Positions 19,336 to 21,932 of a DNA stretch of 58,327 nucleotides are shown here, one piece after another (position 1 is the first letter of the stretch; each line of letters opens with the position of its first letter). A program made the position numbers and the translations under genes. Source of the DNA: a virus (lineage: Duplodnaviria; Caudoviricetes); the IMG/VR virus record IMGVR_UViG_3300037742_000080, positions 1 to 58,327 of that record. One strand, written 5' to 3'. The notes beneath the pieces are model-generated. The model was not told the origin of the DNA and searched no databases. It saw only the letters and a list, made by a program, of their open reading frames with translations.

Positions 19336-20133
19336 ATGACCGAAGAATTGAACCAACAACCCCGTGAAGCCTTTGCGGCCGCCATTGCAGCACGAATGCT
19401 TGTCAAGGTCGCGGAGTTCAACCGCGAGGTGGTTGCCCTGCCTATCCCCGAGACCCCGCAGGTGCTCGGCGAGCAGCGCCTCACCTGGGCAAACGCCGCC
19501 CTGCAGGAGGAGCTCAAGGAGTTCAACGACGCTGTGGACGCTGGCGACGTGCTCGAAGCGGCGGACGCCCTTATCGACCTCGTCTACTTTGCGCTCGGCC
19601 GCCTCGTTGAGATGGGTGTGCCCGCTGTAGCCGTCATGGACGAGGTGCAGCGCGCGAACATGGATAAGCAGCAGGGCGAGCTCTCCAAGCGTCCCGGCTC
19701 CATGGGCCACGATGCCGTGAAGCCTGCCGGCTGGCAGGCACCAGACCACGCGTGGCTGCTGGGCTTCAGCCTAGCAGACGTCCGCGAGCTGGTTGCCCTG
19801 CGTGCTGAGCGCGCCGACCGCGAGGCAATGAGCCCCGTGTGGCTGGAGCTGCAGGCGCTGCGCGAGGCCAAGGGCAAGGACTACAACGACGTGCCCGGGG
19901 GGCGCGACGCCTACTTCCCCTACGGGCACTTCTCCTATGCCCACATGCTGCAAACCAAGAACCTGCGCATTCAGTCTCTGCTGGCTGCCATGCAGAAGGG
20001 TCGCCCCGTCAACTTCGAGGGCCTGTATGACACGGTCAAGGACCTTGTGAACTATGGCACCTACTACGCCGAGGCCATGCGTGACGGCCGCCTGCCGCAG
20101 GATTCCCTCGCGATCGCCGGTGGTGAGGCATGA
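19336..20133 (+). CDS. MazG/PRA-PH-like NTP pyrophosphatase fused to Nmad1 (DUF1599)-like domain
   Basis: LQEELKEF...ADALIDLVYF...VQRANMDK...KPAGW; C-terminal KGKDYN...EGLYDTVKDLVNY. Confidence 0.75.
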   Translation: MTEELNQQPREAFAAAIAARMLVKVAEFNREVVALPIPETPQVLGEQRLTWANAALQEELKEFNDAVDAGDVLEAADALIDLVYFALGRLVEMGVPAVAVMDEVQRANMDKQQGELSKRPGSMGHDAVKPAGWQAPDHAWLLGFSLADVRELVALRAERADREAMSPVWLELQALREAKGKDYNDVPGGRDAYFPYGHFSYAHMLQTKNLRIQSLLAAMQKGRPVNFEGLYDTVKDLVNYGTYYAEAMRDGRLPQDSLAIAGGEA

Positions 20134-21002
20134 TCCCGTTTTTTGACGCCTACGGGGCCATCGTGGCCTGGGTCTTCAGCGGCGAGACCGAGCTCAACGA
20201 GCGGACCGGCGTGAGGGTGAAGGTGGGACGCGGCGGCACGGCCTTCCGCGTGGACCTCCGTGACGGCCTGCTGCCAACGGTGGGCTTCCGCAAGACCTTC
20301 CCGAAGTCGGCGGCCGCCGAGGTTGCATGGTACCTGCAGGGCACGCAGGACGCCAGCTTCATCCGCAAGTACGCACCGCTGTGGGACAAGTTCGTGGAGC
20401 CTATCGAGAAGTGTATTACCCGTGGTGGTGGTCCGCTTGAGTTTGCTACCATCGAAGGCGTCAAGGCTGCCTATGGCTACCGCTGGCGCAACCACTTCGG
20501 TCGTGACCAGATTAGGCTTGCGGTCGAGGCCCTGCGCAAGGACCCGAGCGACCGGCGCTGCTATGTCTCCGCCTGGGACCCGGCTGAGGATGGCCTCGGC
20601 GCGCTAGGCCAGCGGAACGTCCCGTGCCCGGCGTCCTTCACCTTCAGCGTGCTCGGCGGCGAGCTGCACTCGTCCATCATCCTGCGCAGCTCGGACGTGT
20701 TCGTCGGCCTGCCCTACGACGTCATGGGGCACGCCCTGCTAATGGACGCGATGGCCCACGAGCTGCGCCTCCGCCCGGGCGTCATGCACGTGACCCTGGC
20801 CCACGCCCACTTGTACGAGTCACACTGGGACCTCACGGCCGAGATGATGAAGCAGGAGCCCGTCGTGCCGGCAATGCAGCTGCCCGGCTGGACCCTGTCA
20901 CAGATCGAGCGCGCCCCCGACGACTACGTCGTGCGCTACGCCGAGGAGGCCAAGCAGCTGACATGGCCGACCTACAACCCCCGCCCCGAGGTCGTGGAGT
21001 GA
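20130..21002 (+). CDS. Thymidylate-synthase homologue, predicted dCMP (hydroxy)methyltransferase
   Basis: AYGYRWR, DRR, PC (Cys166), RSSD, GLPYD (Asp197), HAHLY. Confidence 0.85.
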   Translation: MIPFFDAYGAIVAWVFSGETELNERTGVRVKVGRGGTAFRVDLRDGLLPTVGFRKTFPKSAAAEVAWYLQGTQDASFIRKYAPLWDKFVEPIEKCITRGGGPLEFATIEGVKAAYGYRWRNHFGRDQIRLAVEALRKDPSDRRCYVSAWDPAEDGLGALGQRNVPCPASFTFSVLGGELHSSIILRSSDVFVGLPYDVMGHALLMDAMAHELRLRPGVMHVTLAHAHLYESHWDLTAEMMKQEPVVPAMQLPGWTLSQIERAPDDYVVRYAEEAKQLTWPTYNPRPEVVE

Positions 21003-21463
21003 TGAACGAGCAGCCCATCAAGCGGACGCAGGAGGAGTGGGACTCCTTCTTCCTGCGGTTCGCCCGCGACGTCGCGGGCATGTCCAAGGACCCTGACCGC
21101 CAGGTCGGGGCCGTGGTCGTGACGCCCGACCGGCGGCAACTGTCCCTCGGCTACAACGGCTTCCCGCCGGACATTGAGGACCTGCCGTCGCTCCTGGCCG
21201 ACCGCGACTTCAAGCTGGCAAACATGGTGCATGCCGAGGTCAACTGCCTCCGGCAGGCTCCGTTCCCGCTCGAGGGCTGCACCCTGTACGTCACCCGCTT
21301 CCCGTGCGACCGCTGCGCCGAGCGGATCGTGGCGGCCGGCATCCGCCGGGTCGTTGCGCCTGCCCCTGACTTCGGCCACGCGCGGTGGGGATCATCCTGG
21401 CTGCAGGCCGCCGGCTCGATGGAGTCGGTCGGTCTGGCCATAACCCTCTACAAGGGAGAATGA
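21002..21463 (+). CDS. dCMP deaminase
   Basis: SKDP...VGA, GYNG, HAE, PCDRC zinc motifs. Confidence 0.9.
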   Translation: MNEQPIKRTQEEWDSFFLRFARDVAGMSKDPDRQVGAVVVTPDRRQLSLGYNGFPPDIEDLPSLLADRDFKLANMVHAEVNCLRQAPFPLEGCTLYVTRFPCDRCAERIVAAGIRRVVAPAPDFGHARWGSSWLQAAGSMESVGLAITLYKGE

Positions 21464-21464
21464 C

Positions 21465-21932
21465 ATGAGACTGCTGCTTGCCAGCTCCGCCGACGGGTAT
21501 CTTGCCCGTGGCCCCGAGGACGACATGAAGTGGACCGGCCCGATCGACAAGGCCGTCTTCCGCCTGCTCACCCTCTCGAACGCCGATGACGTCCTGCTCG
21601 CCGGCTCCCGCACCTTTGACCAGATGCCACCGCTGCCGGGCCGGCGTATGGAGCGCCTGTCCCGCGGGCCGAACGGCATCGACCTGGCGGAGGCTGCCTC
21701 TCGGTGGCCTTCGGCCTGGCTGATCGGTGGCCCCGAGGTCTCGGTCGCCGCCCTGCGCCTGGGCCTTGTCACCCGCGCCTTTGTCTGCGTCTCGCAGGCG
21801 GAGCTGCGCGAGGGCATACATGCCATGGAGCTCTCCACTCTGCTGCCACACGATGGGCCGGAGTTCACCATCAAGGTCGGTGACGTCAAGGTCATGGTTT
21901 TCACGGAGGCGCAGAAGTGGCCCGCGAGGTAA
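21465..21932 (+). CDS. Dihydrofolate reductase-like protein
   Basis: ASSADGYLA...MKW...DKAVFR, GSRTF, LPGR, LSR, IGG motifs. Confidence 0.8.
   Translation: MRLLLASSADGYLARGPEDDMKWTGPIDKAVFRLLTLSNADDVLLAGSRTFDQMPPLPGRRMERLSRGPNGIDLAEAASRWPSAWLIGGPEVSVAALRLGLVTRAFVCVSQAELREGIHAMELSTLLPHDGPEFTIKVGDVKVMVFTEAQKWPAR

Follow-up and report, generated by a model that had tools for sequence, protein, structure and literature searches.

The pathway by which a phage replaces cytosine with 5-methylcytosine (5mC) dates from work on Xanthomonas phage Xp12 in the 1970s and 1980s, and phage T4 provides a related system for replacing deoxycytidine (dC), built from gp42 (the hydroxymethylase of deoxycytidine monophosphate, dCMP), gp56 (dCTPase), gp1 (the deoxynucleoside monophosphate, or dNMP, kinase) and the genes cd, frd and td. 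Analysis by liquid chromatography-mass spectrometry found that 5mC makes up 100% of the cytosine positions in Xp12 DNA, which contains no unmodified cytosine (Flodman et al., 2020, PMC7653180, Table 1). When co-expressed with T4 gp1 in Escherichia coli, the Xp12 homologue of thymidylate synthase (TS) gave 5-methyldeoxycytidine (5mdC), as did five of seven metagenomic homologues that carry an aspartate at the base-specificity position (Asp-type homologues); the same preprint says that Xp12 and Pseudomonas phage PaMx74 'replace C entirely with 5mC' (bioRxiv 10.1101/2024.12.05.627091).

Here we examine a four-gene block at positions 19336-21932 of IMG/VR record IMGVR_UViG_3300037742_000080 (Duplodnaviria; Caudoviricetes), a complete virus record with direct terminal repeats whose 58,327 bases are referred to below as the window. 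We consider it about 85% probable that this block, which belongs to an uncultivated relative of PaMx74, is an Xp12-type module whose role would be to put 5-methylcytosine in the place of cytosine ahead of replication. An earlier note on this DNA had pointed to Xp12 as the precedent for replacing cytosine through a dCMP methyltransferase, and the DNA composition and expression results cited above bear this out. As in T4, the block would bring together a TS-fold enzyme with an aspartate directed at dCMP (gp42 D179 corresponds to Asp197 here), a dCTP-clearing pyrophosphatase, a deaminase and a dihydrofolate reductase (DHFR). T4 differs in that it hydroxymethylates without oxidizing folate, maintains a separate TS (td) that uses deoxyuridine monophosphate (dUMP), and further glucosylates the base.

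Results

A four-gene block collinear with the Xp12 module

The four genes proposed in the earlier note were recovered as open reading frames (ORFs) on the + strand at 19336-21932, in the order MazG/PRA-PH fusion, TS homologue, dCMP-family deaminase and DHFR. They are translationally coupled, with successive junctions formed by a 4-nucleotide overlap (ATGA), a 1-nucleotide overlap and a 1-nucleotide spacer, and PHROGs assignments agree for all four proteins. The features of the block are as follows.

19336-20133, + strand: MazG/PRA-PH pyrophosphohydrolase fusion (265 amino acids; PRA-PH 7.1e-16; phrog_18404 6e-156)
19804-20082, + strand: C-terminal domain of the fusion, possibly Nmad1/DUF1599 (residues ~157-249; phrog_1485 3.2e-6)
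20130-21002, + strand: TS-fold enzyme, predicted dCMP C5-methyltransferase (5-methyl-dCMP synthase; 290 amino acids; PF00303 1.5e-42)
20625-20630, + strand: codons of catalytic Cys166 (20625-20627) and Pro167, the counterparts of E. coli C146 and H147
20718-20720, + strand: GAC codon of Asp197, the base-specificity position (equivalent to E. coli N177 and T4 gp42 D179)
21002-21463, + strand: Zn-dependent dCMP-family deaminase, predicted 5-methyl-dC nucleotide deaminase (153 amino acids from ATG; PF00383 1.2e-20)
21465-21932, + strand: divergent dihydrofolate reductase (155 amino acids; phrog_13578 DHFR 3e-76)
22862-22897, + strand: first downstream terminator-like hairpin (consensus-match scan)

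The hairpin is the sole terminator-like site within 18900-23100, as judged by consensus match only, and the transcription unit that holds the four genes likely ends there.

The block has ~75% nucleotide identity to Xp12 (MT664984), in which counterparts of all four genes follow a helicase gene with their order and orientation unchanged: a 'hydrolase', the TS homologue (QNN97214), the deaminase (QNN97213) and a DHFR-like protein (QNN97212). The encoded proteins are 64% (fusion), 76% (TS homologue, over 289 residues and gapless), 65% (deaminase) and 61% (DHFR) identical between the two phages, which also share the Cys-Pro and Tyr-Asp active-site pairs of the TS homologue and a tryptophan in the deaminase. 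The phages differ in host genus (PaMx74, the closest cultured relative of the phage described here, infects Pseudomonas aeruginosa) and in genome size (63.8 kb for Xp12 versus 58.3 kb here); moreover, the biochemistry and DNA composition of Xp12 have been measured, whereas the present phage is known from its sequence alone. It is because of this orthology with the Xp12 block that the core of our interpretation holds, namely a dCMP-methylating TS homologue, a folate-recycling DHFR and no other TS. The synthesis of 5-methyl-dCMP (5m-dCMP) with folate recycling by DHFR, as put forward in the earlier note, is likewise supported by these collinear orthologues at 61-76% protein identity.

The nearest relative is Pseudomonas phage PaMx74 (JQ067093 / NC_028809; gp50-gp53), with 95.1% nucleotide identity across the block; its TS homologue is 91% identical to the one described here, and identity rises to 98-99% for the other three proteins (deaminase, DHFR and MazG fusion). 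Across the genome as a whole the match is only partial (90.9% identity over 83% of positions 1-25000 and 89.1% over 61% of positions 25001-50000), and the two phages are therefore probably different species. PaMx74 also has an extra, unannotated ORF of 134 amino acids between the deaminase and DHFR genes (5154-5558 of survey locus L002) that is lacking in this phage. The operon junctions take small insertions more generally, and none of those seen in relatives occurs here: in one IMG/VR locus (L007, 4939-5370) the TS and deaminase genes are separated by an ORF of 143 amino acids that includes an HNH-like motif, and one wastewater contig carries ~470 extra letters at the TS-deaminase junction.

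Active site of the TS homologue

The protein encoded by the second gene is a clear member of the TS family. Pfam Thymidylat_synt (PF00303) matches residues 8-252 at 1.5e-42, and 122 TS sequences in the PDB are matched at E <=0.001, with a top match of 7e-26. No gap interrupts the alignment of the segment between Cys166 and Asp197 with PDB chains of E. coli TS, and when T4 gp42 and ThyA of E. coli K-12 are aligned with the protein in MAFFT, Cys166, Arg186, Asp189 and Asp197 lie opposite C146, R166, D169 and N177 of ThyA and C148, R168, D171 and D179 of gp42. The residue assignments of the earlier note, together with its GAC codon at 20718-20720, are thus exact.

Most of the TS catalytic apparatus is retained, in that ThyA residues R21, E58, Y94, R126, C146, R166, S167, D169, G173, H207 and Y209 have identical counterparts in the aligned sequence. 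Inspection of the remaining active-site positions, however, revealed that the Asn177 and His147 of canonical ThyA are absent, with Asp197 and Pro167 standing in their places, and that Leu occupies the position of Q165. Cys166 and Pro167 are invariant in 14/14 aligned orthologues. The two substitutions fall at exactly those TS positions (177 and 147) that were found to separate cytosine-modified from unmodified contigs best (MetaGPA study, eLife 2021, PMC8670742), and exchange of Asn177 for Asp in E. coli ThyA (N177D) turned that enzyme's preference for dUMP into one for dCMP (Liu and Santi, 1992, and others, cited in PMC8670742).

Overall, the TS homologue is 76% identical to the Xp12 enzyme, 32% identical to E. 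coli ThyA and 20% identical to T4 gp42. It reaches none of the eight equivalog cut-offs that NCBIfam sets for thymidylate synthase (best score 109.8 bits against a cut-off of 327; the closest approach is to TIGR03284, with 98.3 bits against 108.35). The protein accounts for the one PF00303 match in the entire 58,327-base record, in which PF02511 (ThyX) has no match; the statement in the earlier note that no canonical ThyA or ThyX is present therefore stands.

Conservation among relatives

To place these residues in a wider context, we drew on a survey of IMG/VR that returned 57 loci from a pattern-seeded scan, a design that biases the sample, and in which partner genes were sought in the fetched flanks by tblastn, which sees fairly close homologues only. 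Seventeen of the 57 loci, not all of them independent of GenBank, have at least 45% TS identity. All 17 keep Cys166, Pro167, Arg186, Asp189, Tyr196 and Asp197, and both Asp197 and Pro167 are also kept in Xp12 and PaMx74. The same 17 loci carry homologues of the neighboring genes near the TS gene, with a deaminase in 16, a DHFR in 15 and a MazG-type protein in 16. The remaining 40 loci match at 25-40% identity or over short stretches; in these, column 197 holds Asn in 25, is uncovered in 15 and holds Asp in none, and homologues of the deaminase, DHFR and MazG partners were found in 0/40. Asp197 is not a chance feature of this genome, since it is kept across its relatives. No variant at codon 20718-20720 is present among the 40 differences listed from 4 runs (489 others are unlisted), a comparison on which we ground no claim.

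A separate TS-like group also emerged from the survey (loci L022-L059), whose members are 25-33% identical to the TS homologue described here. The Asn177 column is covered in 25 loci, and in 24 of them these proteins have Cys-Asn, with Asn at the His147-equivalent position, and Ala-Asn at positions 196-197; the remaining locus, L051, deviates. The loci of this group are without a nearby homologue of the deaminase, DHFR or MazG gene.

Contigs with the block or its relatives come from 20 listed public sequencing runs that span 11 studies. In 19 of these runs, all except the possible source run and mostly from wastewater or activated sludge, there are contigs containing 32-55% of the block's sampled words. 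PaMx74-like phages carrying the 5mC module thus seem to be common in sewage.

Predicted folate recycling by a divergent DHFR

The fourth protein, which is 61% identical to its Xp12 counterpart, gave a sub-threshold Pfam DHFR_1 match (17.9 bits against a gathering cut-off of 25) confined to residues 16-70. Because this match is weak, the assignment was tested by structure. An AlphaFold2 model built from an alignment of 12 orthologues reached a predicted local distance difference test score (pLDDT) of 88.7 and a predicted template modeling score (pTM) of 0.84, and all PDB matches listed for the model are DHFRs (E from 1.2e-7, probability 1.00, template modeling score 0.59-0.68). The DHFR call of the earlier note is accordingly upheld by a confident model despite the Pfam result. 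In phage AXL1, the DHFR orthologue, which is ~91% identical to that of Xp12, raised the trimethoprim minimum inhibitory concentration of E. coli from <1 to >256 ug/mL (PMC9206674). From the modeled fold of the protein and the activity of this orthologue, we infer that the DHFR would regenerate tetrahydrofolate after methyl transfer.

Predicted substrate of the deaminase

The third protein matches Pfam dCMP_cyt_deam_1 (PF00383, 1.2e-20), and the motifs G50-Y-N-G53, H77-A-E79 and P101-C102-x-x-C105 can be read in its sequence. It is 65% identical to the Xp12 deaminase, and its Trp129 aligns with Xp12 Trp128, a residue placed against the 5-methyl group in an AlphaFold model (PMC12088426). The XP-12 deaminase converts 5-methyl-dCTP (5m-dCTP) to deoxythymidine triphosphate (dTTP) (Wang and Ehrlich, 1982; Kuo et al., 1982; both cited in PMC12088426). 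By analogy, the deaminase of the present phage is predicted to act on 5-methyl-dC nucleotides and to supply thymidine nucleotides.

Of the 149 deaminase genes in contigs classed as modified, 104 have a TS gene within 3 kb, compared with 17 of 277 in unmodified contigs, and PRA-PH is one of the five domains most often found beside such deaminases (bioRxiv 10.1101/2024.12.05.627091). Deaminases of the mSCD-B5 type, together with the Asp-type TS genes linked to them, share both the gene neighborhood seen here (a TS with Asp, a dCMP-family deaminase and PRA-PH) and the proposed role of making dTTP from 5m-dCTP. Selectivity for 5mC cannot be assumed from family membership, as the same preprint's screen of 194 soluble candidates found activity in 56 and selectivity for 5mC in 34.

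An alternative that leaves both the enzymes and the 5mC DNA unchanged is that the deaminase converts 5m-dCMP to deoxythymidine monophosphate (dTMP), which is then phosphorylated. By family the protein is indeed a dCMP deaminase, and it has retained the G-Y-N-G motif found in DCTD enzymes; ordinary DCTD enzymes also take 5m-dCMP (PMC12088426), and 'biosynthesis of dTMP from 5mdCMP' was the first interpretation offered in the preprint (bioRxiv 10.1101/2024.12.05.627091). Nonetheless, 99% of 5m-dCTP was deaminated within 30 min by mSCD-B5, the contig of which is drawn there alongside Xp12 and PaMx74, and its activity on 5m-dCMP and dCMP was undetectable; the activity induced by XP-12 was described as that of a 5-methyl-dCTP deaminase (cited in PMC12088426). 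Together with the identity to the Xp12 enzyme and the shared tryptophan, these observations render a monophosphate route improbable. The earlier note, which had derived dTMP from deamination of 5m-dCMP, was thus probably one phosphorylation level off, as the Xp12 enzyme and mSCD-B5 both use the triphosphate.

Alternative products of the TS homologue

A different class of alternative concerns the product of the TS homologue. If the protein were a dCMP hydroxymethylase of the T4 gp42 type, the DNA would carry 5-hydroxymethylcytosine or a derivative of it. Asp197 is common to gp42 (D179), and Asp-type TS homologues as a class have been treated as makers of '5hmdC or 5mdC' (bioRxiv 10.1101/2024.12.05.627091). 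The enzyme is, however, far closer to the 5mdC-making Xp12 protein (76% identity) than to gp42 or even ThyA, and it keeps a C-terminal segment of ThyA length that gp42 lacks in the alignment. In addition, the DHFR gene is coupled to the sole TS-family gene of the genome, an arrangement that, given the established mechanisms of TS and hydroxymethylase enzymes, is sensible only if dihydrofolate is produced. A glycosyltransferase was not noticed among the scanned proteins, in a scan of the genome that was not exhaustive. A hydroxymethylated genome is therefore very unlikely.

The block could also be taken for an ordinary thymidylate pathway that leaves the DNA unmodified, in which a dCMP deaminase makes dUMP, ThyA converts it to dTMP and DHFR recycles the folate. 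This is how relatives are generally described: 26 of the 30 related phage records listed from GenBank bear the label 'thymidylate synthase' and none is labeled a dCMP methyltransferase, in agreement with the remark of the earlier note that an automated label would miss the function, and the paper on AXL1 still treats the TS as a dUMP enzyme (PMC9206674). The TS catalytic core is complete except at N177 and H147, and the protein has the same fold and catalytic residues as E. coli ThyA. It departs from ThyA, at 32% identity, in its natural Asp, in Pro for H147 and in Leu for Q165, and the Asp that replaces the dUMP-specifying Asn is invariant in its clade; as noted above, the protein falls under every ThyA equivalog cut-off. 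Moreover, the Xp12 orthologue makes 5mdC and Xp12 DNA is without cytosine, and the DNA of phages PaMx28, PaMx74, DLP4 and AXL1 resists restriction enzymes (for PaMx28 and PaMx74, some enzymes; PMC9206674). We regard an ordinary thymidylate pathway as hardly credible for this block.

Post-replicative methylation by a DNA C5-methyltransferase was considered and rejected, as the complete genome has no PF00145 match.

The MazG/PRA-PH fusion and its C-terminal domain

The first gene of the block encodes an all-alpha nucleoside triphosphate pyrophosphohydrolase of the MazG type, identified by a Pfam PRA-PH match (PF01503, 7.1e-16) over residues 31-108 and by phrog_18404, annotated 'hydrolase' (6e-156). 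Its Xp12 counterpart at the same position (64% identical) is annotated 'hydrolase (HAD superfamily)'. Six acidic residues of the protein, E58, E59, E62, E74, D77 and D81, are invariant in 10/10 orthologues, and we take them to be the metal-binding motif of MazG-type enzymes.

The helical C-terminal domain is harder to place. Residues 157-249 match phrog_1485, a family of unknown function, at 3.2e-6. For residues 127-265, Pfam returned only a spurious MerR match at E <=1 and no match to DUF1599 (PF07659), nor did DUF1599 match anywhere in the genome at E <=10; three of ten fusion orthologues gave weak DUF1599 matches, the best with an E of 0.14. A feature search of a language-model atlas linked the domain, with a score of 0.91, to a cluster that has PF07659 in 50% of its members, and 18 of 30 matches fell in the DUF1599 set. 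The structural model of the fusion (pLDDT 53.4) was too poor for a fold search. It is plausible that the C-terminal domain is of the Nmad1/DUF1599 kind. Of the MazG-Nmad1 fusion proposed in the earlier note, the MazG half is confirmed by the PRA-PH match and the Nmad1 half is not established.

One function that the domain could serve is that of a docking or regulatory module, coupling dCTP hydrolysis to the dCMP methyltransferase and channeling dCMP to it, in a phage that has no 5m-dCMP kinase of its own and uses those of the host. We hold this to be a speculative and doubtful proposal. No description of such coupling was found for any 5mC phage in the literature examined, and a complex prediction for the TS homologue and the C-terminal domain, run without controls, gave a score of 0.00 that weighs neither way.

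A predicted route to 5mC DNA and the points that weigh against it

Taken together, the four proteins suggest the following route. The MazG/PRA-PH fusion, we infer, as has been inferred in print, most likely hydrolyzes dCTP to dCMP, which would both prevent unmodified dC from entering the DNA and supply the methyltransferase with its substrate. The TS homologue would then transfer the one-carbon unit of 5,10-methylenetetrahydrofolate to C5 of dCMP and reduce it, with Cys166 as the nucleophile and Asp197 reading the N3/N4 edge of cytosine, to give 5-methyl-dCMP and dihydrofolate; the case for this step is made by the 76% identity to the tested Xp12 enzyme, by Asp197 and by the coupling of DHFR to the sole TS-family gene. 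DHFR would return dihydrofolate to tetrahydrofolate, and kinases would convert 5m-dCMP to 5m-dCTP. Finally, the deaminase would turn part of the 5m-dC nucleotide pool into thymidine nucleotide, most likely 5m-dCTP into dTTP by analogy with Xp12 and mSCD-B5. Such a source of thymidine nucleotide would explain why the phage has no need of a dUMP-using thymidylate synthase. Deamination at the triphosphate level and the dCTPase role are less certain than the overall assignment of the block to the Xp12 type. If the assignment is correct, virion DNA is expected to have all or nearly all of its cytosine as 5mC and to be resistant to most restriction enzymes.

Several points argue against a 5mC module or temper the confidence placed in it. 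Every functional step is assigned by homology. The aspartate at position 197, being common to the T4 dCMP hydroxymethylase, would fix the substrate of the enzyme and not its product, and two of the seven Asp-type TS homologues assayed gave no 5mdC (bioRxiv 10.1101/2024.12.05.627091), such that Asp by itself is insufficient proof. The statement that PaMx74 replaces all of its cytosine comes without primary data in the passages of the preprint that concern it. A dNMP kinase was not recognized among the proteins scanned with Pfam, PHROGs and NCBIfam, and Pfam scans of 10 further replication-region proteins yielded no kinase. Lastly, two further MazG-like genes in the genome (6556-7044 and 7670-8251) could carry out dCTP clearing in place of the fusion.

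Neighboring genes and a second nucleotide cassette

The two additional MazG-like genes belong to a second nucleotide cassette at 6556-9083. The protein encoded at 6556-7044 matches phrog_4856 (2e-13) and that at 7670-8251 matches phrog_229 (6e-25); the cassette also holds an unknown protein of 211 amino acids, a P-loop protein (8248-8790) and a DUF4326 protein (4.5e-26). The P-loop protein was considered as a candidate 5m-dCMP kinase and rejected, as sulfotransferase models matched it sub-threshold and through its N-terminal P-loop only. A homologue of this protein is present in each of 54 phage records, PaMx28, AAT-1, PaMx11 and NP1 among them, and none of the 54 is an Xp12 or PaMx74 record, which indicates that the P-loop gene does not travel with the 5mC module. 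PaMx11, one of the phages with a homologue, is thymidine-hypermodifying.

Positions 4984-6528 encode a 514-residue DUF2800 / PD-(D/E)XK (Cas4-like) nuclease (1.6e-52), a protein for which the AXL1 paper speculated on a role against host restriction (PMC9206674). Downstream of the four-gene block, a fifth ORF in the row (21917-22390, 157 amino acids) has 16 nucleotides in common with the end of the DHFR gene. It matches phrog_2165 'DNA helicase' at 1.2e-42 and has no Pfam match at E <=1; the protein is too short for a helicase and is called a 'putative nuclease' in the annotation of one relative.

Discussion

The module described here, and the logic by which it would operate, are already in print. 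It was a 2024 preprint that linked the genes of the pathway to function, and it mentions by name PaMx74, the nearest relative of the present phage (bioRxiv 10.1101/2024.12.05.627091); a literature search found no paper linking Pamexvirus to 5mC. To this body of work the genome adds one more uncultivated member, with the most compact form of the operon. It also illustrates that a reading of sequence alone can recognize a cytosine-replacement pathway that is publicly labeled 'thymidylate synthase'. For the phage and its relatives, the presence of such a module means that their DNA should resist most restriction enzymes, and that methylation-sensitive library preparation and nanopore base-calling may give unusual results with it.

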